Shown: positions 33,434 to 51,627 of the stretch, piece by piece
Layout: the number at the start of each line of letters is the position of its first letter
Position numbering within the stretch: the first letter of the stretch is position 1
NCBI GenBank assembly: GCA_902587565.1
Contig: CACILT010000005.1
Location: forward strand, 10,461-74,460
Origin: an uncultured Alphaproteobacteria bacterium
GTDB taxonomy: Bacteria > Pseudomonadota > Alphaproteobacteria > HIMB59 > GCA-002718135
Reading direction: 5' to 3'
DNA: 64,000 nt
Made by a program: the position numbers and the translations under genes
The notes under the pieces: model-generated
Told to the model about the DNA's origin: nothing
What the model saw: only the letters and a program-made list of their open reading frames with translations
Databases searched by the model: none

Positions 33434-34339
33434 ATGAAATCTTTTGACAGAGACTTAGTAGGGTATGGTCATTCAAGTCCAAATCCTAGATGGCCAAAAA
33501 AATCAAAACTAGCTATCAATTTTATAGTAAACGTAGAAGAAGGATCAGAGTATTCTCCTTTACTTGGAGATAAAAAATCTGAGTCAGGTCTTTCAGAAGT
33601 TCCAGGCGGAAGACACAAAGAAAATCAAAGAGATTTAGGAATTGAGTCAATTTATGAATATGGTTCAAGAGTAGGTTTTTGGAGATTAACCAGTCTTTTT
33701 GATAAATACAGGATTCCACACACCTATTTTGTGTGTGCATTAACTTTACTTCAAAATAAAGAAATATGTAATTATATTAAAAAATCTCAAAATGATATTT
33801 GTTGTCATGGTTACCGGTGGGAAGAGCATTATAAATTAACTAAAAAAAAAGAAAAAAATCAAATTAGCAAAGCTTTTAATTTAATACAAAAATTGACAAA
33901 TAAAGCTCCAAGAGGCTGGTATTGTAGATATGCCCCAAGTGAAAACACCCGAGAACTAATAGTGCAAAATGGAAACTTCTTATACGATAGCGATGCTTAC
34001 AATGATGATTTGCCCTATTGGGTCAATGTGAATAAGAAAAAACACTTAGTTGTTCCTTATTCACTTGATACAAATGATGTTCATTTCAAACTTCCTTCTG
34101 GTTTTAGTGGATCAAATCAATTTTATGAATATGTTTGTGATACTATAAATTATTTATACAAAGAAGGCGCTCATAAACCAAAAATGTTAAATATTGGCCT
34201 TCATCCAAGACTAATAGGACGACCTGGAAGAATTGTTGCAGTTGAAAAAATAATAAATCATATTAAAAAACTAGATAAGGTCTGGATTTGTAACAGAGAA
34301 GAAATAGCATCTCACTGGATTAAAAACTTCAATGAATGA
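33434..34339 (+). CDS. Polysaccharide-deacetylase-fold hydrolase, PuuE (allantoinase)-like
   Basis: The N-terminus RDLVGYGHSSPNPRWPKKSKLAINFIVNVEEGSE closely follows the PuuE-type signature as I recall it (RDLVGYG..P...WP......V.FV.N.EEG.E). 301 aa. Confidence 0.75.
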   Translation: MKSFDRDLVGYGHSSPNPRWPKKSKLAINFIVNVEEGSEYSPLLGDKKSESGLSEVPGGRHKENQRDLGIESIYEYGSRVGFWRLTSLFDKYRIPHTYFVCALTLLQNKEICNYIKKSQNDICCHGYRWEEHYKLTKKKEKNQISKAFNLIQKLTNKAPRGWYCRYAPSENTRELIVQNGNFLYDSDAYNDDLPYWVNVNKKKHLVVPYSLDTNDVHFKLPSGFSGSNQFYEYVCDTINYLYKEGAHKPKMLNIGLHPRLIGRPGRIVAVEKIINHIKKLDKVWICNREEIASHWIKNFNE

Positions 34340-35579
34340 TACTAAGTACACAAAATATCTTTTTGATTCTGTAAAAAAAATCTCTTTTGCTAATCCTGGT
34401 GTAATAAGAGATACTTATGGAAAGGGCGAAAATTTAACACATGATTTTTTAATAAAAGAAGCAAATAAATTTACCAAAGATATTATTATTGATTATGGAG
34501 GTAACTTTCTAGCCACCTACCCTGGAAAATTGAAAAAAAAAATTGTCATTGGATCACATCTAGATAGTCAAAAACATGGTGGAAATTTTGATGGACTTAC
34601 TGGCGTGATAATGGGTCTAGTATTAATAAAATTCTTTTTTGAGAATAACATAAGACCAAAATATTCAATATCAGTGATGGGTATTAGAGGAGAGGAAAGT
34701 TGTTGGTTTCCATACAGTTATATCGGAAGTAAAATTGCAGTTGGAAAATTTGACAAGAAACTATTAGATTCTTTAAAAAGATCAGATACTAAAAAATCTC
34801 TTTCATATCATATAAACAAATCAGGTTTTAATGCTAAGAAAGTATCTAAAAAAAAAATAAAATTCGATATTAAAAATTTTAAATTTTTTATTGAGCCTCA
34901 TATAGAACAAGGTCCAGTGCTTGAAAAAAAGAAAATACCCCTAGGTATAGTTACAGGAATAAGAGGAAGTTTTAGATTCAGAGATGCTTTTTGTAAAGGT
35001 GAATATTTACATTCTGGAGCGACTCCTTATGATTATAGGAAAGATTCTGTTGTTGCAGTATCCAATTTAGTAAATGAAATGAATATTTTTTGGAAAGCAC
35101 AACTAAAAAAAAATAAAGATTTAGTTATAACCTTTGGTCAATTTTTTACTGATAATGAGGAGCATTCTTTTGCAAAAAGCTCTGGTCTTGTTAATTTTTG
35201 TATAGATGTAAGAAGCAATTCAAAAAATACACTTGAATATACCAAAAAAATTTTAATCAAAAAAATTAAATTAATTGAAAAACAAACAAAGACAAAATTT
35301 TTTTTAGGTAAGGAAACAAATTCAGAACCAGCATTAATGGATAAAAAATTAATAAAAAAGTTTCAAATCTATTCCAAAATGATTTCGATGAAATTTGAAA
35401 CTATGGCAAGTGGAGCAGGGCATGATGCTAGTGTTTTTGCAAATCATGGCATACCTTCTTTAATGTTATTTATAAGAAATAAGAATGGGAGCCACAATCC
35501 AAAAGAATATATGAGTATTAAAAATTTTGAAGAAGTTTTTAAAGTCTTAAAAGGTATTATTAAGGATAATTATATCTAA
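34332..35579 (+). CDS. M20-family amidohydrolase (allantoate amidohydrolase / N-carbamoyl-amino-acid hydrolase type)
   Basis: GSHLDSQKHGGNFDGLTGV and a C-terminal SGAGHDA motif. 415 aa. Confidence 0.85.
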   Translation: MNDTKYTKYLFDSVKKISFANPGVIRDTYGKGENLTHDFLIKEANKFTKDIIIDYGGNFLATYPGKLKKKIVIGSHLDSQKHGGNFDGLTGVIMGLVLIKFFFENNIRPKYSISVMGIRGEESCWFPYSYIGSKIAVGKFDKKLLDSLKRSDTKKSLSYHINKSGFNAKKVSKKKIKFDIKNFKFFIEPHIEQGPVLEKKKIPLGIVTGIRGSFRFRDAFCKGEYLHSGATPYDYRKDSVVAVSNLVNEMNIFWKAQLKKNKDLVITFGQFFTDNEEHSFAKSSGLVNFCIDVRSNSKNTLEYTKKILIKKIKLIEKQTKTKFFLGKETNSEPALMDKKLIKKFQIYSKMISMKFETMASGAGHDASVFANHGIPSLMLFIRNKNGSHNPKEYMSIKNFEEVFKVLKGIIKDNYI

Positions 35580-35739
35580 TTACAATTAACACAACACTGG
35601 TCGACCCAATGTCCTGGCTCTACTTCAATCAAACCCATTTCAATATTACCTCCTTTACAATCTATACCAGGGTTTGGACATCGTGTTCGAAAAACACAAC
35701 CTGAAGGAGGATTAATAGGACTGGGAATATCACCTTTAA
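35576..35739. repeat. 164-bp direct repeat, copy 1 (3' end of ATPase gene)
   Basis: Matches 46856..47019 with only 2 mismatches (35588-35589 aa versus 46868-46869 tg). Identity drops sharply beyond 35739/47019. Confidence 0.9.
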
Positions 35740-37414
35740 TTAATATTTTTTCTTTATTTTTTCCTTTTACTTTTGGTACTGCAGATAAAAGTGCTCGAGT
35801 GTAAGAATGTTTAGGACTGTTAAATAACTTTGATACTGGTGCTATCTCTACGATATGACCCAAATACATAACTGCAACTTTATCACAAAAAAATTCAATT
35901 ACGCTTAAATCATGTGAAATAAAAATCATTGTTAGATTATAAGTTTTTTTTAATTTTTCTAATAAATTTAAAACCTGTGCCTGAATAGAAACATCTAAAG
36001 CAGAGACAGGCTCATCAGCTACAATAAATTCTGGCTTAAGTACTAAAGCCCTTGCAATACCAATTCTCTGTCTTTGTCCCCCAGAAAATTCATGAGGAAA
36101 TCTTCTTAGACTTTCTATAGGCAATCCTACGTCGTTAATTATTTCTTTAATATAATTAATAGCTTCATTTTTTTTCATTAAATTATGTACAAGTATAGGT
36201 TCAATCAATGTATCTAAAATATTTTTTCTTGGATTTAAACTTGCAAAAGGATCTTGAAAAATCATTTGCATTTTTTGTCTTATTTTAATCATTTGTTTAT
36301 TTGAATATTCTGAAATATTTTCATTATTAAAATAAATTTGACCTCTAGAGGGTTGTAATAATTTAATTATAGATTTACCTAAAGTTGATTTACCTGAACC
36401 TGATTCTCCAACTAAACCTAACACTTCATTTTTCTTTACATTCAATGAAATATTCTGAACAGCTTTTACAGTTTCATTTGATTCTTTAAAAAAACCTTTT
36501 TCTACAGGGAACTCTTTAAATAAATTTTCTATTTTTAGTATTATTTCATTATCATCAACTTTAGTTTGTTTATTATCATCTTTTTTAGTTAATTTGCGTT
36601 CTTCCAATTTAAATTCGGGTAATGATTGAATAAGATTTCTAGTGTACGAATGTTTAGGATTATCAAATACTTCTTTAACTTGACCCTCTTCCACAATTTC
36701 ACCATGATACATAACAATAACTCTATCAGCTAATTCCCGAACAATACCAAGGTCATGTGTAATAAATAAAATACTAGTTTTAGATACAATTGAATTTTTT
36801 AACTTCATTAATAATTGTAATAACTGAGCTTGAATGGTGACATCTAATGCAGATGTAGGCTCATCAGCAATTATCAGTTTAGGAGTACATGCTAGAGCAA
36901 TTGAAATCATTACTCTTTGTCTCATTCCACCAGAGAGTTGATGTGGATACTCCCTAGCTCTTTGAGTTGGATCAGGTATTTCAACTAGACCCAATAAATC
37001 AATCATTTCTTTAACTGCTTTGGTTTTAGAGATTTTTTTGTGATTTAGAATAACCTCAACTATTTGATCACCAATAGTCATAGTTGGATTAAGACATGTC
37101 ATTGGTTCTTGGAAAACCATTGAAATATCATTTCCTCTTATCAAGTTATGTTTATCATCAGTAAGTTTTAAAATATTTACTTGATTATTTTTTTTATCAA
37201 TTAAATTTATATTACCTTCTTGAATATAGGCATTGTTGGGTAGAAGGCCCATAATGGAGAGGCTGGTAACAGTTTTGCCTGAACCTGATTCTCCAACTAA
37301 AGCAAGAACTTCTCCTTCATTAATCTTAAAGGAAATATTTTTTAAAGCTTGTTTTGATCCATAATCGGACTGAAAGGCAGTACTTAAATTTGAAACATTC
37401 AAAATTTCTACCAT
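35576..37414 (-). CDS. Fused double-NBD ABC ATPase (DppD-DppF type) with Cys-rich C-terminal tail
   Basis: Two Walker A motifs ([17 protein letters not shown]) and two signature motifs. The tail reads [43 protein letters not shown]. Confidence 0.9.
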   Translation of the reverse strand: MVEILNVSNLSTAFQSDYGSKQALKNISFKINEGEVLALVGESGSGKTVTSLSIMGLLPNNAYIQEGNINLIDKKNNQVNILKLTDDKHNLIRGNDISMVFQEPMTCLNPTMTIGDQIVEVILNHKKISKTKAVKEMIDLLGLVEIPDPTQRAREYPHQLSGGMRQRVMISIALACTPKLIIADEPTSALDVTIQAQLLQLLMKLKNSIVSKTSILFITHDLGIVRELADRVIVMYHGEIVEEGQVKEVFDNPKHSYTRNLIQSLPEFKLEERKLTKKDDNKQTKVDDNEIILKIENLFKEFPVEKGFFKESNETVKAVQNISLNVKKNEVLGLVGESGSGKSTLGKSIIKLLQPSRGQIYFNNENISEYSNKQMIKIRQKMQMIFQDPFASLNPRKNILDTLIEPILVHNLMKKNEAINYIKEIINDVGLPIESLRRFPHEFSGGQRQRIGIARALVLKPEFIVADEPVSALDVSIQAQVLNLLEKLKKTYNLTMIFISHDLSVIEFFCDKVAVMYLGHIVEIAPVSKLFNSPKHSYTRALLSAVPKVKGKNKEKILIKGDIPSPINPPSGCVFRTRCPNPGIDCKGGNIEMGLIEVEPGHWVDQCCVNCN

Positions 37415-37416
37415 AA

Positions 37417-38271
37417 CTACACTTTACCTTTATCTACTGATTGTCTCGCATCAAGTGCAATACTTAGCCTATCACCTAGTAAGTTAACCGACATAACAGT
37501 TAAAAATAAAAAAAGTCCTGGATAAATCATAGTCCAGGGCGCATATCGCATATACTCTCTTCCTGAACTCAACATGGCACCCCATTCGGGTTCAGGAGGT
37601 TGTGCACCTAATCCAAGAAAACTTAAGGATGCTATAGAAATTATAGCACCACCTAAATCCATAGTTGCAATAACTATGATTATTGGAAATATATTTGGAA
37701 GAATATGATTAAACATTATTCTTATTTTTCCAAAACCCATATTTACACATGCTTCAATATAAGGTTGCTCTTTAACTTGTAGTGCCGCTGAACGAATAAT
37801 TCTTGCAAAATGTGGAATACTTGCCAATCCTACTGCGAACACGACATTCCATAAACCAACACCAATTATTGCAACAACTAAAAGAGACAAAAGGAAGGAT
37901 GGGAAACCAAACATAACATCAATTATTCTTGACCCAATAATATCCACTCTACCACCGATATATGCTATTGTTATTCCAAAAATACTACCAGCAATTATAC
38001 CAAATAAAACTGAAATCACACCCACACTTAAAGAATATCGCGCTCCATAAACAATTCTAGAAAATACATCTCTCCCATGAATATCTGTGCCAAATAAAAA
38101 ATCCCAACTAGGTGGGGCTAATCTTGGCCCAGTATCAACTTCATTCCAATTATATGGAGCAATCAATGGTGCAAAAATTGCTCCAATAATTATAATTAAA
38201 AGAAATATTCCGCCAAAAGCTGATCCTTTATTCAATAAAAATCTTTTTAAAATAATTGAAAAATTTTTCAT
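37417..38271 (-). CDS. ABC transporter permease (DppC/OppC-like)
   Basis: 284 aa. GTDIHGRDVFSR motif, 6 TM. Confidence 0.9.
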   Translation of the reverse strand: MKNFSIILKRFLLNKGSAFGGIFLLIIIIGAIFAPLIAPYNWNEVDTGPRLAPPSWDFLFGTDIHGRDVFSRIVYGARYSLSVGVISVLFGIIAGSIFGITIAYIGGRVDIIGSRIIDVMFGFPSFLLSLLVVAIIGVGLWNVVFAVGLASIPHFARIIRSAALQVKEQPYIEACVNMGFGKIRIMFNHILPNIFPIIIVIATMDLGGAIISIASLSFLGLGAQPPEPEWGAMLSSGREYMRYAPWTMIYPGLFLFLTVMSVNLLGDRLSIALDARQSVDKGKV

Positions 38272-39200
38272 TACCCTCTATTTCTTTCTAGTCTGATTCT
38301 TGGATCAATAATTCCATAAGTAAAATCTACTATCAAATTTAAAAAAATATACACTGCTGTCATATAAACAACTAGCGCTTGAACTAATGGTATATCTTTT
38401 GCCAAAATAGCTTGAAGCAATAATTGACCAAGTCCTGGTCTTGCAAATACTTCTTCTGTAATTACAGCTCCCGTAATAAGTAACCCAAATTGTATACCAA
38501 GTAATGTTACTGGAGGTATCATTGCATTTCTTAATGAATGTCTTAATACTATTCTATATTTGGATATTCCTTTTGAACGTGCTGTTCTTATATAATCTTG
38601 ATTTAATACATCTACTAAACTTGATCTTGTTAATCTTGCCATTCCTCCAGCAAAAAATAAGCCGACTGTAATAGATGGTAAAATTAAAGAAACAAAGCCC
38701 TCACCTACAATTGGTACCCATCCCAAAGTTGTACCAAATATATAAATCAGCATCATCCCTATCCAAAAACTAGGAAGAGAAATGCCACAAAGAGCAATAA
38801 TCATTGAAAAAGTATCACGCATTGAATTAGGTTTGGTTCCAGCAAATATTCCAAAAAAGACACCAAAAAAAACTCCAAATATTAAACCTCCTATAGAAAG
38901 TTCTATTGTAGGCATCATGTTTTCTTTAATCATTGTTGTTACAGGTTGCCTAGTGAGATATGATTTTCCTAAATCACCCTTAGTTGCATTAATTAAGAAT
39001 GAGGTATATCTCTCAAAAACAGGTTTATCTAAACCTAAATTCTTCCTAACATTTTCTCTTACTTCATCTGATGCGGGTCGTCCGCCAAGCATTAAATTTA
39101 CTGGATCTCCAGGAATAATATTTAGTGTTACAAAAACTACTGTCCAAGCAATGTACAAAGTGGGTATTACAATGAGGAGTTTTTTTATAAAAAAATTCAT
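38271..39200 (-). CDS. ABC transporter permease (DppB/OppB-like)
   Basis: 309 aa. IPGDPV motif and an EAA-like loop (DYIRTARSKGISKYRIV). Confidence 0.9.
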   Translation of the reverse strand: MNFFIKKLLIVIPTLYIAWTVVFVTLNIIPGDPVNLMLGGRPASDEVRENVRKNLGLDKPVFERYTSFLINATKGDLGKSYLTRQPVTTMIKENMMPTIELSIGGLIFGVFFGVFFGIFAGTKPNSMRDTFSMIIALCGISLPSFWIGMMLIYIFGTTLGWVPIVGEGFVSLILPSITVGLFFAGGMARLTRSSLVDVLNQDYIRTARSKGISKYRIVLRHSLRNAMIPPVTLLGIQFGLLITGAVITEEVFARPGLGQLLLQAILAKDIPLVQALVVYMTAVYIFLNLIVDFTYGIIDPRIRLERNRG

Positions 39201-39206
39201 AATTTT

Positions 39207-39230
39207 TTAGCCACCTTTAAAGGTGGCTAA
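39207..39230 (-). promoter_or_regulatory. Intercistronic stem-loop after SBP gene (perfect 24-bp palindrome)
   Basis: ttagccaccttt/aaaggtggctaa: 12-bp arms, in the 44-nt gap between the SBP stop (39245) and the permease start (39200). No U-tract on the transcribed strand. Confidence 0.45.
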
Positions 39231-39244
39231 ATTTAATCAATTAA

Positions 39245-40828
39245 TTATTTTTTTCGTACATCATACATACGCATTTGCCAATTACCATTGGCAAATCTCA
39301 CACCCTCTAAATCAGGATTGTATGCAACTGTTTGTACTTGATCGTGAATTGCAAGAAAAATTGCTTGATCCATTATATGTTTTTGAATTTGCATATATAG
39401 ATCATCTTTAACCTCCTGTGTTTCTGCACTTTCAGCATCTTCAAGAAGTTGATCAAGTTCTGCATTAGCATATCTAGCCCAGTTAAATTTGAATTTACCT
39501 GGTTGTGGAATATTTCTAGAGTGGAAAGGAATAATTAATACTCCTGGATCTAGAGAAACCCATCTAATAACTAGCATATCGTAACCGTTAGCAAAGATTA
39601 ATTCATCTTGTCTTGCTTTCATTACTACTTCAACATTAACATCAAATCCTACCTTGTTTGCATAGCCTTGTATTGCAACACAAGTATCAGGTTCTAGTAA
39701 GCATGGAAAAAATACAGTAAGTTTTTCACCATTTTTTTCTCTAACACCATCAGAGCCCATTTTCCAACCTGCTTCATCTAATAAAGCAGCTGCACCTTCA
39801 GGGTTGTAAGGATAATAATCTTCATTACCACTCCAATAACTTGGTGTTGAGCTACTAATTGGACCAAATGCTGCTTCGGCATATCCAAAAAATAAATCAC
39901 TTGTCATTTTTATTCTATCAAGTGAATGGAAAAATGCTTTTCTAACATTAACATCTTGGAAGACACCAGTAGTTGTGTTCAAGAAAGCTGAGTAAGGTAA
40001 ACCAGATACTGTTCCTGTAACAGTACTTAGATCTCCACTAGAATCAAATCTACGCATATCAAGCGGAGGTACTAATTCTGCGATATCAACTTCACCAGCC
40101 TCTAGAGCAGCAACTCTAGTACTAGTATCTTTAATCAATCTATATGTTAAATTTGCAACTTGAGAAGGACCACTCCCATCCATATATTCAGGAGCCCAGT
40201 TATAATCAGGATTTCTTACTAACTCTACTTTTTTGTTAGCCTCCCAATTTTTAAACATAAATGGTCCAGTACCCACAGGAGCCATTCCAAATCCTTCATT
40301 ACCTAGTTTGTCTAGAGCTGTTGGACTAACAATTGATAACTCTGTTTCTGTAAATGCAGTTATTGCAGATCCATAACGTCTTTCAAAAACTACTTTTGCA
40401 GTAAAATCGTCTATAACAATTGTTTCCTTATAAGGCCCTAAAATATCTACTGCACCTTGTGATCCAGTTTCTGGATCTACAATGCTATCAAATGTTGCTT
40501 TGACAGCTGCAGCATTAAATTTTGTTCCATCATGGAAACTTACATCATCTCTTAAGCTGAATGTATATTCTAACCCATCACTAGAGACATCCCATGATGT
40601 TGCAAGACCAGGATATATATTTCCTTCTGAGTCAGCTGATATTAATTGATCAAACATATTTACAATTAACATTTCTTCATGTCTTGACTGTGTTATTCTT
40701 GGATCTAGTGTTCTCAAATCTGGTCTATCCTCTGCAAAAACAATATCCAATGCGTTCGCAGTATTAATAAAAGAAAGACTTGAGAATATAAAAGTTATAC
40801 CAAGAGCAATTTTTAATAATATTCTCAT
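39245..40828 (-). CDS. ABC transporter substrate-binding protein, family 5
   Basis: Signal peptide MRILLKIALGITFIFSSLSFINTANA. An AAAGGAGA RBS lies upstream. Family-5 features are present (LATSWDVS.DG..YTF.LR.DV.FHDG). Confidence 0.9.
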   Translation of the reverse strand: MRILLKIALGITFIFSSLSFINTANALDIVFAEDRPDLRTLDPRITQSRHEEMLIVNMFDQLISADSEGNIYPGLATSWDVSSDGLEYTFSLRDDVSFHDGTKFNAAAVKATFDSIVDPETGSQGAVDILGPYKETIVIDDFTAKVVFERRYGSAITAFTETELSIVSPTALDKLGNEGFGMAPVGTGPFMFKNWEANKKVELVRNPDYNWAPEYMDGSGPSQVANLTYRLIKDTSTRVAALEAGEVDIAELVPPLDMRRFDSSGDLSTVTGTVSGLPYSAFLNTTTGVFQDVNVRKAFFHSLDRIKMTSDLFFGYAEAAFGPISSSTPSYWSGNEDYYPYNPEGAAALLDEAGWKMGSDGVREKNGEKLTVFFPCLLEPDTCVAIQGYANKVGFDVNVEVVMKARQDELIFANGYDMLVIRWVSLDPGVLIIPFHSRNIPQPGKFKFNWARYANAELDQLLEDAESAETQEVKDDLYMQIQKHIMDQAIFLAIHDQVQTVAYNPDLEGVRFANGNWQMRMYDVRKK

Positions 40829-40971
40829 ATTATCTCCTTTGTTAAGAAAATTAGAAATAGTTTAAATCATTTAGAAATTACAAAAAGTTTAAAATTAGCA
40901 TTTTTGTAATGCTTTTTAGACATCACTCAAAAAACCATATTTTAAAGGATTTTTAAAGAAATTTGTTAGAA

Positions 40972-42210
40972 TTAAATACTATTTTCTAATAGCTTACCGT
41001 CTTTAAAAACTTTTATATTTTTTTTATCGCTTAAAATTTTTATATTTTTTGAAGGGTCACCTTGTATAACAAGGATATCTGCTTTTTGACCCTCTTCAAT
41101 AGTACCCACATTTATTCCTAAAAGTTCACCACCAATTCTAGTTGCAGATATTATTGCTTCCATATTTGTCATACCTCCTTGAACCAAGTATTCTAATTCT
41201 CTGTAGTTCATTTCTCCATGTGGCAGCATAAAACCTGCATCTGTTCCGGTTGCTATTTTAATATTAGATTTAATTGCTTTTTTTAAAGAAACCCATTTTG
41301 CCTCTCTAGATAATTCTAACCACTTCCAATTTTTAGAAGATTTAAATTTTTCGTTTTCTTTAAAATCAAAATTTCTTTCATTGACTAAAAGTGTAGGAAC
41401 ATAAAAAGTATTATTTTTTTTCATCAAATCAACAGTTTTATTATCAAGCCAATGCCCATGTTCAACTGAATGCAATCCACATTCAACTGCTTTTGTGATA
41501 GCAGAACCACCAGAGGTATGAGATGCTACTTTAATATTTAACATTTTTGTAATTCTTGCGACTGCTTCAATTTCTTCGTTACTCATCTCTTGTTTATAAG
41601 GTTTTTTTAGATCATAAGTTGAACTTACACATAAATTTGTTTTAATAAAATCAGCACCTGCTTTTAATTGAGTTCTAACACCTTTAATAAATTCATCTGG
41701 TCCATCACATGGATAAGTCATATCTTTAAAATTTACATGACTCCCCCATCCTGGTTGATCCATATGGCCACCGGTTACTGACAATCCTAGTCCGCAGGCT
41801 AAAATGTTAGGTCCTTTTAATTTATTATTTTTAATCATGTTTCTAATATTAATTGCAACATTTCCTGGAGCATTCATATCTCTAATACTTGTGAATCCAT
41901 AATTTAGATGATCTAATGCAAATGAATAACCTCTTAAAGCTTGAGCTCCATAATCAAGATCAGCAGACTCTGCTCTAAATGATCTATTATTTGTTATTCC
42001 TGAGAATGCCAAATGAACATGGACATCAACCATGCCAGGCATAACCACTTCTTTGTTAAAATTATAAACCTTGTCACCTTTTTTATCTTTAAAATTTTTT
42101 AAATCTAAAACTTTTGTAATTTTTCCATTTTCAATTATGATACATTTGTTTTCTAAAATTTTTTTACTTACACCATTTATTAGTTTTTTGGTTTTAATTA
42201 TTTTTCTCAT
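40972..42210 (-). CDS. Amidohydrolase-superfamily metal-dependent hydrolase (COG1228-like)
   Basis: MPGMVDVHVHL (HxH), internal His residues and a GTDAG motif. Paralog of 52781..54016. Confidence 0.85.
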   Translation of the reverse strand: MRKIIKTKKLINGVSKKILENKCIIIENGKITKVLDLKNFKDKKGDKVYNFNKEVVMPGMVDVHVHLAFSGITNNRSFRAESADLDYGAQALRGYSFALDHLNYGFTSIRDMNAPGNVAINIRNMIKNNKLKGPNILACGLGLSVTGGHMDQPGWGSHVNFKDMTYPCDGPDEFIKGVRTQLKAGADFIKTNLCVSSTYDLKKPYKQEMSNEEIEAVARITKMLNIKVASHTSGGSAITKAVECGLHSVEHGHWLDNKTVDLMKKNNTFYVPTLLVNERNFDFKENEKFKSSKNWKWLELSREAKWVSLKKAIKSNIKIATGTDAGFMLPHGEMNYRELEYLVQGGMTNMEAIISATRIGGELLGINVGTIEEGQKADILVIQGDPSKNIKILSDKKNIKVFKDGKLLENSI

Positions 42211-42217
42211 ATCTATA

Positions 42218-42964
42218 TTAATTCAATTTATATTTATGCTTAATTTTTTTTGTTAATTGCCAAGCATCAATATATTTATTATTTATAACACTTTTTGTTT
42301 GTACTCCTAAATGAAGAAACGCTGGTGAAATTAAATATGGATCTTTCCATATTTTTCTCTTTTCATCTGAATAAGTTTTTTTACTCATAGAAGTTTTAAT
42401 AGGAGTTCCAGGAGTTATTGTATTTACAAATACATTATATTTTTTGCATTCTTCATATAGAGACCTACTTAATCCTTCAATCCCAAATTTTGAGGCACAG
42501 TATGCAGTTTCATCTAATCCACCAAACTTAGCAGCTCTGCTAGATACATTTATAATGGAACCTTTTTTATTTTTTTTCATAGAAGGGGCAATAAGTTTAC
42601 AGCTTATAAAAGTACCAGTTAAATTTACATCGATAATTTTTTTCCAAAAATCAATTGTACTTTTTTCAATACTTTTAAAATCAATAATACCTGCACAATT
42701 AATAAGGACATCAATTCTTTTAGATTTTTTTAATATTTTTTTTACAATCAAACTCATCTTTTTGTAGTTCTGAACATTACAATTATGAAACTCAAAATTT
42801 TTAAATTGTAAATTTAAACTTTTATTATTTTTATTATCAATACCATATACAATCGAACCTCTCTCTAAATATGCTTTGGATACTGCATGTCCAATCCCAC
42901 TGGAAGTACCTGTAATAAAAACTTTTAAATTTTTAAAAGTACTATGTTGCAGCTCTACCACCAT
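42218..42964 (-). CDS. Short-chain dehydrogenase/reductase (SDR)
   Basis: TGTSSGIGHA cofactor motif, NCAG, and catalytic YCASK (YxxxK). Confidence 0.85.
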   Translation of the reverse strand: MVVELQHSTFKNLKVFITGTSSGIGHAVSKAYLERGSIVYGIDNKNNKSLNLQFKNFEFHNCNVQNYKKMSLIVKKILKKSKRIDVLINCAGIIDFKSIEKSTIDFWKKIIDVNLTGTFISCKLIAPSMKKNKKGSIINVSSRAAKFGGLDETAYCASKFGIEGLSRSLYEECKKYNVFVNTITPGTPIKTSMSKKTYSDEKRKIWKDPYLISPAFLHLGVQTKSVINNKYIDAWQLTKKIKHKYKLN

Positions 42965-43706
42965 CCACTAAAAGACCTACGCCTGTTATAAAAGATGACA
43001 TATCAGATGAAAGAAAAAGAACAGTTTGGGCTAATTCATATGGACTCGCAACTCTTCCTAAAGGTGTAATCGTTTTCCATTTACTAATAAGCTCTTTTTT
43101 ATTTTTTGTTTTTTTTAAATTTCTTTCATTCATAGGAGTATCTATTACTCCGGGACAAACAGCATTTACTCTTATATTATTTTTTGCATACTCAATAGCC
43201 AAGACTCTTGTGAGTGACATCACTCCTCCTTTTGAAGCTGCATAACTAAGATTGCCACCTACATTTGCAAAAGCACTTATTGAACTATTATTCACAATTG
43301 AACCTTTTTTATTTTTTAACAAAATAGGTAAGGCATGCTTACAAGATAAAAATATTCCCTTAAGATTTATATCAATAATTTTTTCAAATATTTTTATATT
43401 TAATTTATGTGATGGAGTAACTGCTTGTTCTATACCAGCATTATTAAAAACAGTATCTAAAGTTTTAAAATTTTTAGTTACATATTTGTATAAATTAATA
43501 ATATCTTTTTCCTTTGATACATCAGCTTTTACAAAATAAGTTTTCAAACCTTTTTTATGAAGCTCCTTTTGAGTTTTTTCACCCTCATTTTTGTTTACAT
43601 CACAAAAAATAACTGTTGCACCCTGTAATGCAAATGTTTCTACTGTAGCTTTTCCAATACCAGTTGCTCCACCAGTTATTACTGATATTTTATCTTTTAA
43701 AATCAT
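42942..43706 (-). CDS. Short-chain dehydrogenase/reductase (FabG-like)
   Basis: TGGATGIGKA, NNAG, YAASKGG and PGVIDTPM motifs. Confidence 0.88.
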   Translation of the reverse strand: MILKDKISVITGGATGIGKATVETFALQGATVIFCDVNKNEGEKTQKELHKKGLKTYFVKADVSKEKDIINLYKYVTKNFKTLDTVFNNAGIEQAVTPSHKLNIKIFEKIIDINLKGIFLSCKHALPILLKNKKGSIVNNSSISAFANVGGNLSYAASKGGVMSLTRVLAIEYAKNNIRVNAVCPGVIDTPMNERNLKKTKNKKELISKWKTITPLGRVASPYELAQTVLFLSSDMSSFITGVGLLVDGGRAAT

Positions 43707-43845
43707 ATTTGTAAGTTAATTAAAATTCAAAAATAAATAAATAAACAAATTGTATAGTTGTTGTTGACATTTTGTATACACTTTAAATGAATTACCATTA
43801 TGTAATACTTTAAAAAAGCTAAAAAATAGTATTTACTAAAATAAT

Positions 43846-44946
43846 ATGTACGACCTAAAAAAACATTTTCTAGCTGATAAAAAAATTATTTTATCAAAAA
43901 TTGAAAATGTCCTTAGCAAAGGTGTTTTGGAAATGGGTGAGGAGGTAGAGAAATTTGAAGAGAATTTTAAAAAATATTGTAATGTTAAATATTGTGTAAC
44001 TGTATCTTCTGGATCTATGGGGTTACTTTTAGCCCTTAAAACTTTAGACTTAAAAAAAAATGATGAAGTTATAACTGTATCTAATTCTGACATTCCAACA
44101 AGTCACGCAATTACTCTTGTTGGAGCAAAAATTAAATGGGTTGATATTAATGAAGATTCTTTAAATATTGATGAGAACAAAATCGAAAAAAATATAACAA
44201 AGAATACCAGGGCAATCTTACCTGTGCATTTATTTGGAAATCCATGTAATATTTCGAAAATATCATCTATTGCAAAAAAACATAAATTAAAAATTATTGA
44301 AGATGCGTGCTTGGCAACTGGTGCAGAGTACAAAAATAAAAAAATTGGTTCATTAAGTGATTTAACAGTTTTTAGTACTAATCCAGGTAAAATATTAGAT
44401 GGTATAGGCCCAGGTGGTATTATTACAACTAACAGTAAAAATTTGTATCTTCAGTTACTTCAGCTTCGTGATTATGGAAGAAAAGAGAGGCCTAAAAAAT
44501 GGCCAGTAAAATCTTATACAATAGGTTATAATTCAAAATTAAGTACAATAAGTGCCGCAATTCTTAATATTAGATTAGAAAAACTTGATGAATATATACA
44601 AATTAGAAATTATAACGCAGAACTGTACAAAGAAATTTTATTCTCTAAAAAAATAAAATTTCAAAAAACTCTTAAAGATGCAAAATCCTCCTGGAGAAAT
44701 TTTCCAATAAGAATAAAAAATAGAAATAAAATATATGATAAATTAAATTCTATAAATTCATTAGTAAAACTCAATTATTTACCGCCTAATCATCAAGATG
44801 AATGTTATAAAAATTTTAAACATAATTTTGATTTAAAAATTACAGAAAAAGTTAATTCTGAGATTCTAAATCTTCCATGTCATCAATATATGACAAAAAA
44901 TGAAATTGAAACTTTATCAAATCATCTACTAAATCTAATTAATTAG
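43846..44946 (+). CDS. DegT/DnrJ/EryC1/StrS-family PLP-dependent aminotransferase
   Basis: FE..F..Y...YCV.VSSGS..L, ILPVHLFGNP, and a PLP-Lys region FSTNPGKIL. 366 aa. Confidence 0.8.
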   Translation: MYDLKKHFLADKKIILSKIENVLSKGVLEMGEEVEKFEENFKKYCNVKYCVTVSSGSMGLLLALKTLDLKKNDEVITVSNSDIPTSHAITLVGAKIKWVDINEDSLNIDENKIEKNITKNTRAILPVHLFGNPCNISKISSIAKKHKLKIIEDACLATGAEYKNKKIGSLSDLTVFSTNPGKILDGIGPGGIITTNSKNLYLQLLQLRDYGRKERPKKWPVKSYTIGYNSKLSTISAAILNIRLEKLDEYIQIRNYNAELYKEILFSKKIKFQKTLKDAKSSWRNFPIRIKNRNKIYDKLNSINSLVKLNYLPPNHQDECYKNFKHNFDLKITEKVNSEILNLPCHQYMTKNEIETLSNHLLNLIN

Positions 44947-45938
44947 TATTTTAATTTAATAACTTTATTTATATTTATCGACTTATAAATTGCATCAACA
45001 ACTAAGACAGAATTTATTCCATCTTGTATTTTGATAAAAGGTTGGGTTTTTTTCTTTAGTGCATCAACATATGATTTTGCTTGAGTATAAAAATTATAGT
45101 TTAGACCATTCTTATTATAATATTTTGAATAATCATATGTTGTTATTTTATTTTTTGATCTTAGCTCTAATCCTTTTCTAATATTAATATCTATTTGTCC
45201 AGACGTGCCAAATATTTTTGTTTCCCATTTTGGAGTAGTCACATATGGCACAAAAGTTGCTATTAACTGAGCAGTTATTCCATTTTTAAACTTCATTGAA
45301 ATTGAAATTATATCTTCAACATCTATTTTGTTGTTTATATTTATTTTTTTTGCATAAACCTCATGAATTTTAGATTTAGCTAAGTATGAAATCTTATCTA
45401 AACTATGAATCGCATTGTATAGTAAAACACCTCCACCAGAATATTTCTTAACATCTATCCATTTTGGTAAAGATTTGTTTTTTTGAGAAATCATTGTTTC
45501 AGAAATAAATTTTATTTTCCCGATTTTTGAATTCTGTATCAGTTTGTAAGCAGTAAATACTTCTTTTCTGTATCGATGAACAAAACTAATTGTATGGGTA
45601 ATATTTTTTTTTAATATATATTTTTTTATAGAACTTAGCTCATTACTATTCAAAACTAATGGTTTTTCTATCAAAAGATTTATTTTATTTTTACAACACT
45701 CTAATATTGGTTCTATTCTCAAAAAATGTGGTAGTGCGATAACTATAAAATCAGGTTTTAACATTATAAGTTCATTAATATTATTGAAATGCTCTATATT
45801 GTTTAATTTTTTAAATTTATTAGCTTTTTTCAAATCATATTCTGTAAATCCAATTAATTTTAAATTTCTAATTTTTTTAAAAGCCTCAAAATGTCTTAAA
45901 CCTGCTTGACCAATTCCTAGTAAACCATATCTCATCAA
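44943..45938 (-). CDS. Gfo/Idh/MocA-family oxidoreductase
   Basis: N-terminal Rossmann motif YGLLGIGQAG and the EKPL motif (LIEKPLVL). Confidence 0.8.
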   Translation of the reverse strand: MMRYGLLGIGQAGLRHFEAFKKIRNLKLIGFTEYDLKKANKFKKLNNIEHFNNINELIMLKPDFIVIALPHFLRIEPILECCKNKINLLIEKPLVLNSNELSSIKKYILKKNITHTISFVHRYRKEVFTAYKLIQNSKIGKIKFISETMISQKNKSLPKWIDVKKYSGGGVLLYNAIHSLDKISYLAKSKIHEVYAKKININNKIDVEDIISISMKFKNGITAQLIATFVPYVTTPKWETKIFGTSGQIDINIRKGLELRSKNKITTYDYSKYYNKNGLNYNFYTQAKSYVDALKKKTQPFIKIQDGINSVLVVDAIYKSININKVIKLKY

Positions 45939-46834
45939 TAATTTGAAATAAGTTTATCAACTTTTTTAGTTTTTAGTAAGCTATTCTTATTAATTGCTTC
46001 TCTATAAGCTATAAAGAGAATTGATGAGAATATTATAGAAGCTCCTATCCATGTCCAAATATCAGGCACTTCCATAAAAAAGAAATATCCAATTAAAGAC
46101 AGCCAAATTAGTTTTGTAAATTGTATTGGCATTATAAATGTTGTTTCAGCCATTTTTAAACATTGAGCAAAACTGAACTGTGTTATAAATCCCGCAATAG
46201 CAACAAATATAAATAATAAAAATTGATTTATATTAATGCTTTCCCAAAAGAACAACGCAATAAAAAATGTCGGAGGAACCATGAAAGCCATTTGGTAAAA
46301 AGCAGTCGTTAAACTTGAATCCTTTTCAGTAAGTTTTTTTACAATTATTATTACTATTGAAAAAGTTATTGCTGCTGATAAAAGCCATAAAGCTCCACTC
46401 TCAAAAGGTATATACCCAGGCCTTATAACAACCAAAATTCCTATAAAGCCAACAATTAGTGCAGTAATTCTTTGAATTCTAATTACTTCACCTAAAAAAA
46501 TAATTGCGAGGATGGTAGTAAATAGTGGAGTAGTAAAACCTATAGCTGCTGCTTTTTCTAGTTGTAATGTTCCTATAGCTGTAAACCAGCTTATCATTGA
46601 ATAAACATTAATCGCAGATCTCACAAACTGTAGTTTTATGTTATGAGTTTTCCAAGCTTCTGGGTAATTATAAATCATAAAAGGTAACATAATAATAACC
46701 CCAAACAGACATCTGTAAAATGCAATTATGAAAGGGTTTAAATCTTGTGAAAGTAGTTTTATTCCTGAAACCATAATTGCTGCTGTACCAGTACCTAATA
46801 AAGATAACAAAATTACAAATAGTTTTTTATTCAT
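45935..46834 (-). CDS. EamA/DMT-family transporter
   Basis: 299 aa, 10 TM, with two EamA repeats. Its stop overlaps the downstream gene's start by 4 nt. Confidence 0.85.
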   Translation of the reverse strand: MNKKLFVILLSLLGTGTAAIMVSGIKLLSQDLNPFIIAFYRCLFGVIIMLPFMIYNYPEAWKTHNIKLQFVRSAINVYSMISWFTAIGTLQLEKAAAIGFTTPLFTTILAIIFLGEVIRIQRITALIVGFIGILVVIRPGYIPFESGALWLLSAAITFSIVIIIVKKLTEKDSSLTTAFYQMAFMVPPTFFIALFFWESININQFLLFIFVAIAGFITQFSFAQCLKMAETTFIMPIQFTKLIWLSLIGYFFFMEVPDIWTWIGASIIFSSILFIAYREAINKNSLLKTKKVDKLISNY

Positions 46835-46855
46835 ATTCTTAAAAATGTAATTTAA

Positions 46856-47019
46856 CTAATTACAATTTGCACAACACTGGTCGACCCAATGTCCTGGCTC
46901 TACTTCAATCAAACCCATTTCAATATTACCTCCTTTACAATCTATACCAGGGTTTGGACATCGTGTTCGAAAAACACAACCTGAAGGAGGATTAATAGGA
47001 CTGGGAATATCACCTTTAA
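46856..47019. repeat. 164-bp direct repeat, copy 2 (3' end of ATPase gene)
   Basis: See copy 1. The offset between copies is 11280 bp. A third, diverged copy lies at about 47818-47990. Confidence 0.9.
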
Positions 47020-47821
47020 GTAGAGTTTTCTTTTTATTTTTTCTAAATATTTGTGGAGCAGTTTCAATAAGAGATCTAGTATAAGGATGTTGAGGATTTG
47101 AGAATAAATTACTTGTATTTGCAACTTCTACTATATGACCTAAATACATCACCATAACTCTATCAGCTATTTGATTTATTACTGAAAGATCATGAGAAAT
47201 AAATAGAATTGTTAAAGAATACTTTTTTTTAAGTTCTAAAATTAAATTTAGAATTTGGGCTTGAATGGTTACATCTAAAGCTGACACTGGTTCATCAGCT
47301 ATTATGAATTTTGGATTAAGAACTAACGCTCTAGCTATACCAATGCGCTGTCTCTGTCCCCCCGAAAATTCATGAGGATACCTATTTAAATGTTCTTTTT
47401 GCAAACCAACATCTTGAATTATTTCTTCTACCTTTTGATTAATAGAATTTTTATCCATTTTTTCATGAACTTTGAGACCTTGAGATATAATGTCATAAAT
47501 TTTTTTTCTAGGATCTAAGCTAGCATATGGATCTTGAAAAATTATTTGAAAATCTTTTCGTAATTTTCTCATTTCACTATCTGATAATTTTGTAATATTC
47601 TTATTTTTATAAAAAATATTTCCCTGAGTAGGCTCAATTAATCTAATGATTGCTCTTCCGAGAGTGCTTTTGCCGGATCCAGATTCTCCGACAAGACCAA
47701 GAATTTCTCCTTCTGGAATTTCAAAGCTAACGTTTTCAACTGCTTTTACATCTCCCGATTTATTGTTAAAAAATCCATCTTTTATTGGGAAATATTTTTT
47801 TATATTTTCTACTCTAATCAC
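46856..47821 (-). CDS. ABC ATPase, DppF/OppF type, with Cys-rich C-terminal tail
   Basis: Walker [10 protein letters not shown], signature FSGGQRQR, Walker B IIADEP. The C-terminal 54 aa are identical, apart from one residue, to those of 35576..37414. Confidence 0.9.
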
Positions 47822-48807
47822 GTTTGATTACACTCATAACAACATCTATCAACCCAGTGTCCTGGTTTGGCTTCAATCAAACCCATCTCAATATCTCCAC
47901 CTTTACAGCCTATACCAGGATTAGGACATCTAGTCCTAAAAACACAACCAGAAGGTGGGTTTGTTGGGCTAGGAATTTCACCTCTTAGTACCTTAATTTC
48001 TCTTTTTTCATCCGAAATTTGAGGCGCTATATCAATTAATGACTTAGTGTATGAATGCAGCGGATTATTAAATAATTCTGATGTTTCTGCAATTTCCATA
48101 ACATTACCCAAATACATTACCATTACATGATCTGATATTTCAGAAACAACTCCAAGATCATGAGTAATAAATATAATCGACATCCCAAGTTTTTTTTGCA
48201 GTTCTTGCATTAGGTCTATAATTTGAGCTTGTATTGTAACATCAAGAGCAGTTGTAGGTTCATCAGCAATTAAAATTTTAGGATTACAACTTAAAGCCAT
48301 CGCGATCATTGCCCTTTGTCTCATTCCACCAGATAATTCATGAGGGTAGGAGTCAATTCTTTTTTGAGGCTCAGGTATGCCTACAAGATCTAGCATTTCA
48401 ATAGCAATTTTTCTTGCTTGTTCTTTGCTTTTCTTTTGGTGAAGAATAATTGTTTCTGAAATCTGAAAAGATAAATCATAAACTGGATTTAGGCTTGTCA
48501 TAGGTTCTTGAAAAATCATAGAGATTCTATTTCCTCTAATTTTTCTCATTTCATTTTCTTCAAGATCAATTAAGTTTTTATTATCAAATAATATTTCACC
48601 TCGTTCAGTTTGTGCTAAGTTATTCGGTAACAAGCCCATAATAGATAATGCTGTAATAGATTTACCTGAGCCTGATTCCCCAACTATCGCAAAAGTTTTT
48701 CCTGCTTCTAAATTAAAAGAAACACCATCAACAGCTTTAACAACTGATTCACCAACAGTAAAATGTGTTTTTAAATTCTTTATACTTAATAAGTTTTCAC
48801 TAATCAT
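47818..48807 (-). CDS. ABC ATPase, DppD/OppD type, with Cys-rich C-terminal tail
   Basis: Walker A GESGSGKS, signature LSGGMRQR, Walker [12 protein letters not shown]. The tail reads [45 protein letters not shown]. Confidence 0.9.
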
Positions 48808-48814
48808 ATTAATT

Positions 48815-50206
48815 TTATCTTATTGGAGATACAAAATTATTCATATTTCTATTCCTATAAAATTTTTTTCCATCATAAACCACTTTTCCATTAACTATAG
48901 TTTTATTTATCTTTCCTTTTATTTTTTCCCCAAAATATAGATGAGCACAGTTTTTTCCTTTTGAAACAAGGGTATTTCTATCCACAGTCCATTTCTTATT
49001 CATATCTAAAATAACTATATCTGCATCAGATCCTCTTTTAATTAAACCTTTATTTGGAAAAATATTAAATCTTTTTGCCGGATTAATACACATCAGTTCA
49101 ATTACTTTTTCTAATTTGATTTTTTTTTCTGAAACAGCTTTTAGCATAAGTGGTAACATTAATTCACCACTAGGCGCACCTGGAGGAGCTTTAAGAAAAT
49201 TTTTTTCCCCCTTTATTTTCTCATTGTATGAAAAAGAAGCATGATCAGAGGCTATAATATCAAGAGTTTTATTTTTAAGAGCTGACCATAATTTTTTTTG
49301 ATCTTTTTGTTTCCTTATTGGTGGATTAATTTTTCCAAATGGACCTGATTTAATTACATCTCTTTCATTTTTAAATAAATAGTGTGGACATGTTTCCGCA
49401 GTTATACTCTGACCTTTACTTTTAAATTTAGAAATTACTTCTAAAGATAATTCTGAAGTCACATGAGCAATATGAATTTTAGTTTTAACAATTGAATTCA
49501 ACCTTAGTATCTTTTCAATTGCACTTGCTTCTACAACAGCAGGTCTCATAGCATTATGTATTGCTGGATTATTTTTTTTAAAATTTTTTTGATTTTTCTC
49601 AAAATGATCAAGTAAATTCTGATCTTCAGCATGAAATATTGTCGTTAAATTTGATTTTTTTGCATGTATTAATGCTTTGAGAATATTTTTTTCTTCAGTA
49701 AAACACAATCCTTCAAATTCACTTTTTCTATCAAGTGGAGGAGCAATTGTAAAAACTTTAAAAGCAATAGCTCCACTATTTATTAATCCATTTAGATTTT
49801 TATCATTGAATTTTCCTAAAGCAGGAATCATAGCAAAATTAATGTAAGTATTTTCATCAAAATGTTTTTTTCTATGGTTGAGCACCTTAGCATTTGACAT
49901 GCACGGATTACTTATAGGCATTTCAAAAAGTGTAGTTATTCCACCCTTTGCGGCGGCTTTAGTTTCACTTTGAACTGTACCTCTTTGAGGAAATGATGGC
50001 GCTCTAACATGAAAATGAATATCAATTATTCCAGGAATAACAATTTTTTTATCAGCATTGATAATTTTTTTGGACTTAAATGATTTTATATTTTTTGTTA
50101 GCTTAAAAATTTTACCATCTTTGATTACAATATGGTTTTTTTTAAATTTATTTTCCTCAAAAACTTTTCCATTTTTTATAATCAAATCACAGTTAGTAAT
50201 CATCAT
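48815..50206 (-). CDS. Cyclic amidohydrolase (allantoinase / hydantoinase / dihydroorotase-like)
   Basis: PGIIDIHFHVR (HxH), GGITTLFEMP, AFKVF (carboxylated-Lys region), FHAED, HIAHVTS, ASDHA. 463 aa. Confidence 0.85.
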   Translation of the reverse strand: MMITNCDLIIKNGKVFEENKFKKNHIVIKDGKIFKLTKNIKSFKSKKIINADKKIVIPGIIDIHFHVRAPSFPQRGTVQSETKAAAKGGITTLFEMPISNPCMSNAKVLNHRKKHFDENTYINFAMIPALGKFNDKNLNGLINSGAIAFKVFTIAPPLDRKSEFEGLCFTEEKNILKALIHAKKSNLTTIFHAEDQNLLDHFEKNQKNFKKNNPAIHNAMRPAVVEASAIEKILRLNSIVKTKIHIAHVTSELSLEVISKFKSKGQSITAETCPHYLFKNERDVIKSGPFGKINPPIRKQKDQKKLWSALKNKTLDIIASDHASFSYNEKIKGEKNFLKAPPGAPSGELMLPLMLKAVSEKKIKLEKVIELMCINPAKRFNIFPNKGLIKRGSDADIVILDMNKKWTVDRNTLVSKGKNCAHLYFGEKIKGKINKTIVNGKVVYDGKKFYRNRNMNNFVSPIR

Positions 50207-51627
50207 TCAAAAATTTTTAGTTCTTTTAATGCTTTTGCAACTCCATCAAGATTTGACAGTTTCATAGATGCATAATTTGGCGACAACACAATCCCTTTTC
50301 CTCCAGCATTATACGTTGCTAAAACTGATCTATAAGCAATATCTGGTGTACAGATTGCTTGTTCTTTTGATGATCGAGGTGCATCAATACCAATACCCAT
50401 ATATACTTTAGATTCACCATCAACACCTCTAACTGCATCCGCACATTGAGTATAAATATATGTATCTGGATCTAATCCTCTTTCTATTAGATTATTTAAG
50501 CTAGTTTCATTAATTCCTAAAATTTTAGAAAAAGATGAAACCAACTCAGAATTAGATAATTCATTTAAAATTGTTTTTCCAAATATGTTTATTTCTCTGT
50601 GGAATATTTCACCAGATTGATGTTGATAAGTTATAGGCTTTACCCAATCCGAATAATCTACCTGTTCTTTCCAAGGCCACTGTATTTTTCTAATAAAATT
50701 AAAATGATTTCTATTCCAAACGTTTAATCCAAAAGACAAATTAGGTTTGATCCATTTAACTAAACCATAAATTTCTTTATCTAAGTCTTTATTTCTTTTA
50801 AGCCAAAATTTTTCCCACTCTAAAATTTCAGGTTTATCAAATAGTATTCTAAAAAATTCAATTAAGTTTCCATCAACAAAATTTTTTCCATCCAATGTTT
50901 TTTGAAAGAACTCATATAATGACAACAAAGAGTCTCTTATTTTTTCAATATTTAAATTAAAAGTTTTGGCTTCTAGTAAAAAATCTTCTGAAAAATCACC
51001 AGGTGCATTTCCTTGAAATAACTGATCTAGAGGTGAATATCTTTCATTACACCACATAACGCCATCAATATCATAATTAGCAACTTGATCTTCAATCATT
51101 GATAAGATCCAATTTCTATAATTTTTATTACTTGTAGAAGGTGATTTGCTAATTTTTCCAAAGACATCTACTTCCATACATTGAACTAAATTTGGAATGT
51201 CTACTCCTGTAGCCGAGCCATGACCTGCATAATTGAAAAATGGTTCCATTAATTCAATAAAAATTTTCATTCCTCTTTCTCTTGCTTTAGGAATAACCAT
51301 TTTTAAAATATCTTTATTTTTCATTTCTTTGTCTTGGGCTTTAAAATCTTTTATAAAAGTTTTATTATAAAATTTGGGATCTGGATCAAAATATGCTCCA
51401 CCTTTCATTGAAAATGGTTCTGGAATTCCATGATCTGGCCAACCATCTATTTCCCAAGACACTGATCTTCCTGATTTTAATCCAAGCCATGAAACAGTCC
51501 CAATTAGTAGAACATTTACACCAACACGTTTTTGTAAAGTATCCAATACATTATCAATTCCCTCATCAATAAATGAAATTGGACTTATTTGAATTCCAAC
51601 AAATTTATCTTTTTCTTTTTTAATCAT
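50203..51627 (-). CDS. Hypothetical protein (474 aa), family not recognised
   Basis: Clean ORF with 4-nt overlaps to both neighbours in the operon. No TM segment or signal peptide. YDIDGVMWCNER is a possible barrel beta4-NE motif; this is weak. Confidence 0.6.
   Translation of the reverse strand: MIKKEKDKFVGIQISPISFIDEGIDNVLDTLQKRVGVNVLLIGTVSWLGLKSGRSVSWEIDGWPDHGIPEPFSMKGGAYFDPDPKFYNKTFIKDFKAQDKEMKNKDILKMVIPKARERGMKIFIELMEPFFNYAGHGSATGVDIPNLVQCMEVDVFGKISKSPSTSNKNYRNWILSMIEDQVANYDIDGVMWCNERYSPLDQLFQGNAPGDFSEDFLLEAKTFNLNIEKIRDSLLSLYEFFQKTLDGKNFVDGNLIEFFRILFDKPEILEWEKFWLKRNKDLDKEIYGLVKWIKPNLSFGLNVWNRNHFNFIRKIQWPWKEQVDYSDWVKPITYQHQSGEIFHREINIFGKTILNELSNSELVSSFSKILGINETSLNNLIERGLDPDTYIYTQCADAVRGVDGESKVYMGIGIDAPRSSKEQAICTPDIAYRSVLATYNAGGKGIVLSPNYASMKLSNLDGVAKALKELKIFE

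Follow-up and report, generated by a model that had tools for sequence, protein, structure and literature searches.

A near-identical 164-bp repeat at the ends of paralogous Opp/Dpp-type ATPase genes in an uncultured marine alphaproteobacterium, a likely product of recurrent gene conversion

How do two ATPase genes that are ordinary paralogs over most of their length come to end in practically the same 164 bp? The question is raised by a 64,000-nucleotide (nt) stretch of DNA from an uncultured, HIMB59-related marine alphaproteobacterium (contig CACILT010000005.1, positions 10,461 to 74,460), which we refer to as the window and whose own coordinates are used throughout. Three minus-strand genes for Opp/Dpp-type ATPases are involved. 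Gene A (35576..37414) encodes a protein of 612 amino acids (aa) in which Pfam recognizes two fused nucleotide-binding domains (NBDs), a two-domain nature that the initial annotation of this DNA did not mention. Gene B (46856..47821) encodes an OppF/DppF-like ATPase of 321 aa and is about 68% identical in its body, at the nucleotide level, to the second half of gene A, and gene C (47818..48807) encodes an OppD/DppD-like ATPase of 329 aa and overlaps gene B by 4 nt. We consider it very likely that the repeat arose because the 3' ends of these paralogs, on one chromosome, underwent recurrent ectopic (interlocus) gene conversion with each other.

The repeat itself has the form that the initial annotation, made from the sequence alone, had given it: a near-identical direct repeat with two adjacent differing bases, beginning at the stop codons of ATPase genes that are only ordinary paralogs farther upstream, with the adjacent ATPase gene ending in a third and more diverged copy. 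Tail copy A (35576..35739) and tail copy B (46856..47019), both on the minus strand, each consist of a TAG stop and the last 53 to 54 codons of their gene; they lie in direct orientation at an offset of 11,280 nt, match at 162 of 164 bases, and share a longest exact run of 150 nt. The sole differences, AA at 35588-35589 versus TG at 46868-46869, correspond on the minus strand to a GTT (Val) codon in A and a GCA (Ala) codon in B, and this site is polymorphic in the population, since the A copies of five related contigs (L018, L019, L022, L028, and L109) carry the B state (CA). Beyond the stop codon, on the left side, A/B identity in the same register is at the background level of 20 to 40%. On the other side, the gene bodies are about 68% identical over the next ~800 nt (364/536 over the 536 nt measured), and this similarity vanishes further upstream. 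Third codon positions match between A and B at 54 of 55 sites (98%) in the tract versus 99 of 179 (55%) in the body, and the chance of an exact run of 150 nt against a 68% background is about 0.68^150, or ~1e-25. Tail copy C (47818..47982, minus strand) carries the same Cys motif and is diverged from both A and B (78% nucleotide identity over 144 nt).

Comparison with related genomes separates the tails from the rest of the genes. Contigs were reached by exact-protein look-ups of the products of gene B, a permease gene, and a glyoxalase gene; the M20 peptidase and the 612-aa product of gene A, queried likewise, matched no record. The order C - B - EamA ... permeases - A - M20 peptidase is common to about 30 independent assemblies that are ~98% identical to the window and include single-cell genomes of the GORG type, Tara scaffolds, and pilon-polished long-read contigs of 27 to 110 kb. 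Eight related loci, bearing the title "uncultured Alphaproteobacteria" or MarineAlpha5_Bin12, came from a scan of species-representative genomes, and the locus L026, used below as an outgroup, is one of them; MarineAlpha5 has been described as HIMB59-related (PMC8879329). The possibility that related strains might show one level of identity along the entire genes, raised by the initial annotation as an argument against conversion, did not hold, as A/B body identity is 66 to 69% in every genome compared and A/B tail identity varies widely. The tails match at 116/164 positions in the outgroup L026, at 130 to 137/164 in L016, L018, and L020, at 146/164 in L011, 155/164 in L017, 156/162 in L014, 159/164 in L012, 161/164 in L013, and 162/164 in the window and L015, and they are identical (164/164) in L019, L022, and L028.

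The comparison of the tail with the remainder of each gene that the initial annotation had proposed gave the same picture in identity matrices. Bodies cluster by ortholog (A, 79 to 100%; B, 81 to 100%; C, 72 to 99%; cross-paralog values, 57 to 68%), and tails group by genome and not by ortholog, with the A tail of the window 100% identical to its B tail and the latter only 72% identical to the B tail of L026. The C genes of the window and of L016 are 92% identical in the body versus 70% in the tail; part of the population has therefore undergone tail replacement in gene C as well. The central part of the tract (PNPGI[D/E]C.GG) is of the type found in outgroup A genes and its ...NCN end, before the stop, is of the type found in gene B of L026, a mosaic that suggests exchange in both directions. 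As a control, 29 tail pairs were obtained from 71 unrelated loci, and in none of them was the tail more conserved than the body; therefore, the homogenization is specific to this lineage, and a general property of Opp/Dpp tails was rejected as an explanation.

Shared polymorphism points to exchange that is still going on. At 58 variable tail sites, the same variants are present in both the A copies and the B copies, and several genomes carry a haplotype of their own in both: G-127, C-58, and A-55 in L028; T-148, A-73, T-25, and A-22 in L022; and A-93, T-25, and A-22 in L019. Single variants common to both copies are A-93 in L015 and the rare C-73 in L012. The two copies of the single-amplified genome (SAG) L011, with 18 differing sites, were certainly resolved by the assembler, yet a patch of A-48, A-43, and T-40 is common to both. 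The A and B tails differ at a mean of 3.0 sites within a genome versus 5.3 between genomes (permutation p = 5e-5). When only single-cell genomes were considered, the true A/B pairing was the minimum of all 720 permutations, and for the four SAGs retaining A/B differences it was the minimum of 24. Diversity is also about 4.6 times higher in the B tail than in the B body (0.030 versus 0.0065), as expected if A variants are imported, and the tract as a whole (pi of 0.023 to 0.030) is at least as polymorphic as the gene bodies. The terminal module has thus been repeatedly homogenized among paralogs within genomes. The call of recent gene conversion in the initial annotation is borne out by the synonymous identity confined to the tract, by the contrast between ortholog-grouped bodies and genome-grouped tails, by tail identities that vary from 116 to 164 of 164, and by the covarying polymorphisms. 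The conversion was probably bidirectional, probably drew in gene C as well, and probably amounts to the concerted evolution of one protein module.

What this module may do is indicated by solved relatives of the three ATPases. Genes A, B, and C all encode an ABC_tran NBD followed by an oligo_HPY C-terminal region (Pfam), and their closest solved structures are OppD and DppD of Mycobacterium tuberculosis and OppF, DppF, OppD, and DppD of Escherichia coli; gene A in particular is best related, in the Protein Data Bank (PDB), to the fused M. tuberculosis OppD (8j5q) and to E. coli OppF/DppF. The tract encodes an end that reads ...GHWVDQCC(V/A)NCN before the stop, and the tail motif, GC-x5-C-x6-C plus a distal Cys, aligns residue for residue with that of E. 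coli OppF. In E. coli DppD/DppF, the four corresponding Cys residues bind a [4Fe-4S] cluster, and the transporter comes apart when they are mutated (PMC12136057). Since the four-Cys motif aligns with the E. coli ligands, the converted unit is the entire putative C-terminal Cys-rich [4Fe-4S] module, cluster binding here being predicted from the alignment. The ATPases of the window thus share ABC_tran plus oligo_HPY and the GC-x5-C-x6-C plus distal Cys pattern with ATPases that have a C-terminal [4Fe-4S] domain (E. coli DppD/DppF, 8z1v, PMC12136057; E. coli OppF, 8z21; M. tuberculosis OppD, 8j5q; Thermoanaerobacter tengcongensis DppD, 4fwi). They differ from these in that the window tails are longer, with three extra Cys residues at the end (CCxNC), and in that cluster binding is putative. 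The Cys-rich tail of gene A, moreover, is on the second NBD only, whereas the Cys-motif region of M. tuberculosis OppD aligns with the first NBD.

Several further observations concern the ATPase genes and their alleles. In L026 (2787-3926 and 15084-15243), the B and C tails are without the third Cys of C-x5-C-x6-C (RCPHASKDNKEAN and RCPNASSNEKKES), and the A tail retains it; the B and C tails of the window lineage, unlike those of L026, have the A-type motif including the third Cys. An allelic cassette of about 1.27 kb (46787..48061, minus strand) covers the C tail and all of gene B. Its left edge lies ~80 nt away from the C tail on the upstream side, and its right edge follows closely downstream of the B tail. 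In L016, L018, and L020, which are metagenome contigs, this cassette is ~82% identical to the window between flanks of 97 to 100%, and its B tail is not A-like (the 130 to 137/164 given above); L011 has an intermediate cassette allele (91%). In L011, which is SAG AG-913-B05, gene A (L011 10858-12697) is 99% identical to that of the window and is called as two open reading frames (ORFs), of 309 and 289 aa; either the gene is truly split or the linker contains a sequencing error. The C/B pair (46856-48807) closes a long run of minus-strand genes for DUF4438, Ldh_2, M24 peptidase, amidohydrolase, and aminotransferase proteins. Neither a permease gene nor a binding-protein gene adjoins this pair, and no Opp-type permease set that lacks an ATPase of its own and that B and C could serve was found inside the window; the only Opp-type permeases near B and C belong to systems with their own fused ATPase. 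A third fused Opp/Dpp-type ATPase gene (29193-30950, plus strand; 585 aa) lacks a Cys tail and is truncated in its oligo_HPY region, and a 70% inverted repeat (30405-30505 and 36195-36295) is due to ordinary paralogy with this gene.

The limits of the tract suggest how gene conversion may have been confined to it. The 5' limit would correspond to the onset of strong protein conservation, and hence of nucleotide similarity, downstream of a poorly conserved linker, and the 3' limit lies at the stop codon because homology ends there. Highly conserved codons would then serve as the 5' anchor and the GHWVD.CC codons plus the stop as the 3' anchor, with the divergent upstream linker and the unrelated downstream intergenic DNA blocking exchange on either side. 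A first event would have made the tails alike, and the resulting identity of 150 nt would have eased further homologous exchange. Each conversion would raise identity and so make the next one easier, such that the tails evolve in concert as the rest of the genes diverges. The exchange would be homologous, non-reciprocal, and probably RecA dependent.

Certain points weigh against gene conversion in this form. Classical conversion needs homology on two sides, and a tract extending to the final homologous base is unusual for it. De Bruijn-graph assemblers can merge near-identical repeats that exceed k, by collapse or bubble popping, and a metagenome contig can combine several strains, such that assembly may have inflated the identity in some 164/164 cases and, in part, the covariation within genomes; the cleanest evidence for covariation is confined to the four SAGs with A/B differences (1/24 permutations). 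The contrast between tail and body is independent of this caveat. Finally, the present data fit selection for identical tails as well as neutral homogenization. A stronger version of the former would make the Fe-S tail a selected, interchangeable cassette, such that the three ATPases keep one tail for a shared docking partner and the tails also act as recombination anchors that bound the 1.27-kb cassette, as an allele segregating among members of the population, and occasionally delete the 11.3-kb block between the repeats. The partner might be the single permease set of that block, which may also serve the orphan B/C pair, or a common redox or Fe-S sensing input. We regard this version as unlikely; if it were true, it would imply presence/absence variation of an uptake and catabolic block in a streamlined ocean bacterium.

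Gene conversion also has to be weighed against explanations in which no copying between the genes took place. The initial annotation had itself considered that the identical stretch might be an artefact of collapsed or duplicated reads, and the 11.3-kb arrangement could be suspected of such an origin too. The usual k-mers are shorter than an exact repeat of 150 nt, so homogenization during assembly or polishing is conceivable, and a short contig described below shows that odd joins at the repeat occur in public assemblies. The arrangement B - EamA ... permeases - A - M20 peptidase nevertheless recurs in the ~30 independent assemblies, single-cell genomes and 27- to 110-kb long-read contigs among them, and the pilon-polished long-read contigs already indicate two distinct loci with near-identical tails. 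The window and several SAGs keep 2 to 18 A/B differences, so the copies were resolved, and collapse by an assembler presupposes copies that are already near-identical. We therefore hold an assembly artefact to be highly improbable. Even less credible, in our view, is purifying selection on the nucleotide sequence itself, through an embedded RNA or DNA element or extreme codon constraint. The tract does encode the most conserved protein motif of these ATPases. However, it is polymorphic, and therefore nucleotide-level selection does not explain its identity; its two copies also change together, copy C encodes nearly the same peptide at only 78% nucleotide identity, and the 29 pairs from other taxa show no greater conservation in the tail than in the body. 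An Rfam scan of 34000-49500 (E<=1) gave no family in the tract, its sole sub-threshold match being to an unrelated U12 at 39127-39274; the predicted RNA fold of the tract is not significant (z-score of -1.1), and no terminator was found in it. An embedded RNA or terminator was rejected on these grounds.

The other alternative concerns the DNA between the copies (35740..46855), which together with one repeat copy forms an 11,280-bp unit. Under this explanation the unit would be a recently acquired island, brought in by a Campbell-type single crossover of a circle in an ATPase tail or flanked by att-like repeats, and would still excise. The geometry fits, with direct repeats and an intact B-type ATPase left after excision, and the same short contig carries the exact predicted junction, in which the B body is followed by the tail and by the downstream of A with the M20 peptidase gene. 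The stretch 29243-50772 is, however, syntenic in L026, which is 77% identical to the window at the DNA level and has unconverted tails (116/164); therefore, the block is old and the present identity of the tails is secondary. Pfam recognized no integrase, recombinase, or transposase in the ten block genes and their neighbors, only transport and metabolic families; no tRNA gene is present in the window; and the guanine-plus-cytosine content of the block (24 to 33%) matches that of its flanks (26 to 33%). All of the 20 long contigs reached via genes outside the block (gene B and the glyoxalase gene) retain it, and the junction contig is short, has a homopolymer frameshift, and is explicable as a chimeric path through the repeat. 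An origin by insertion was rejected on the synteny with L026, the lack of mobility genes and of a tRNA gene, and the normal composition, and we judge the island scenario to be quite unlikely. The 11.3-kb block is ancestral chromosome and no mobile insert.

The content of the block is as the initial annotation listed it, as judged by Pfam: the body of gene A, two permease genes and an SBP_bac_5 binding-protein gene (the ATP-binding cassette [ABC] system), an amidohydrolase gene, two short-chain dehydrogenase/reductase (SDR) genes, a DegT aminotransferase gene on the plus strand, a Gfo/Idh/MocA oxidoreductase gene, and an EamA transporter gene. In the Gfo/Idh/MocA - DegT region of SAG AG-913-B05 (L011 3100-3900, ~window 44370-45170), identity to the window is 80 to 92% versus ~97% around it, which suggests other recombined alleles inside the block. 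Elsewhere in the window, a 474-aa ORF without a Pfam match (50203-51627) lies in an amidohydrolase/aminotransferase operon and keeps its position in all related contigs. ORFs of 609 aa (4936-6765) and 341 aa (13837-14862) are likewise without a Pfam match at E<=1e-6, and the first of them follows genes for a sulfatase and a sulfatase-modifying enzyme.

Deletion between direct repeats by RecA-dependent recombination is established bacterial genetics, and the initial annotation had pointed out that it could remove this block and leave an intact chimeric ATPase. As a possibility this holds: direct repeats that are exactly identical over 150 nt and separated by 11.28 kb are a sufficient substrate, as in the known cases, and the product would be an in-frame B-type ATPase. 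The block is no recent insertion, as the synteny with L026 indicates, and the only sign of its excision came from the search for block-less sequence that had been proposed along with the claim. We searched JGI and NCBI metagenome contigs for the predicted deletion junction, defined as 32 nt of B-body-specific sequence followed, after a gap of 164 to 170 nt, by 23 nt specific to the downstream of A. A single contig matched (PYIJ01382490.1, here L100; 1,092 bp), and it may be a chimeric assembly. Its positions 1-245 are B body (96% identical to gene B of the window), positions 246-409 are a tail of known variants that ends in the A-type GTT, and positions 410-1092 are M20 peptidase gene (93% identical). 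An A-run in the B part, at the 5' end of the contig, carries a frameshift, and the flanks, at 93 to 96%, are more diverged from the window than the usual ~98%. L100 fits excision, and it could also be a mis-traversed repeat node in a low-coverage short-read assembly. Unlike established cases of direct-repeat deletion, then, this locus has yielded no reliable deletion variant, only one ambiguous short contig versus 20 long contigs with the block; therefore, excision, although possible, appears to be at most rare or absent in nature.

The locus has practical consequences for work on these genomes. Trees or ortholog calls based on the C termini of Opp/Dpp ATPases will mislead, and phasing or joining errors will be made by assemblers and variant callers at the repeat, which is at the same time a standing substrate for the loss of an 11-kb transport and catabolic block. 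More generally, this uncultured bacterium provides a clean natural example of concerted evolution that is confined to one small functional module and has been caught in progress in wild single-cell genomes.

The process is a known one, the concerted evolution of bacterial genes by gene conversion, of which this is a new instance without a new mechanism. The tufA/tufB genes of Salmonella and E. coli are one example among bacterial paralogs. Concerted evolution by gene conversion has also been described for rRNA operons (PMC8022953), and 26 genes with recurrent concerted evolution have been reported in prokaryotes (PMC6053082), in a paper in which "ABC," "oligopeptide," and "dipeptide" do not occur. 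A search of the literature for previous accounts of conversion in the tails of ABC ATPases gave only general papers on concerted evolution. As in the known cases, the paralogous tails within a genome are closer to each other than to their orthologs in other genomes, and the exchange has recurred over long periods and would be homology dependent and non-reciprocal. Unlike in those systems, only a terminal module of 164 bp is homogenized here, and the remaining ~800 nt stay at ~68% identity. The setting also differs from that of known cases of concerted evolution, in that the genes encode ABC importer ATPases and the exchange is seen in wild populations of an uncultured, AT-rich marine bacterium.

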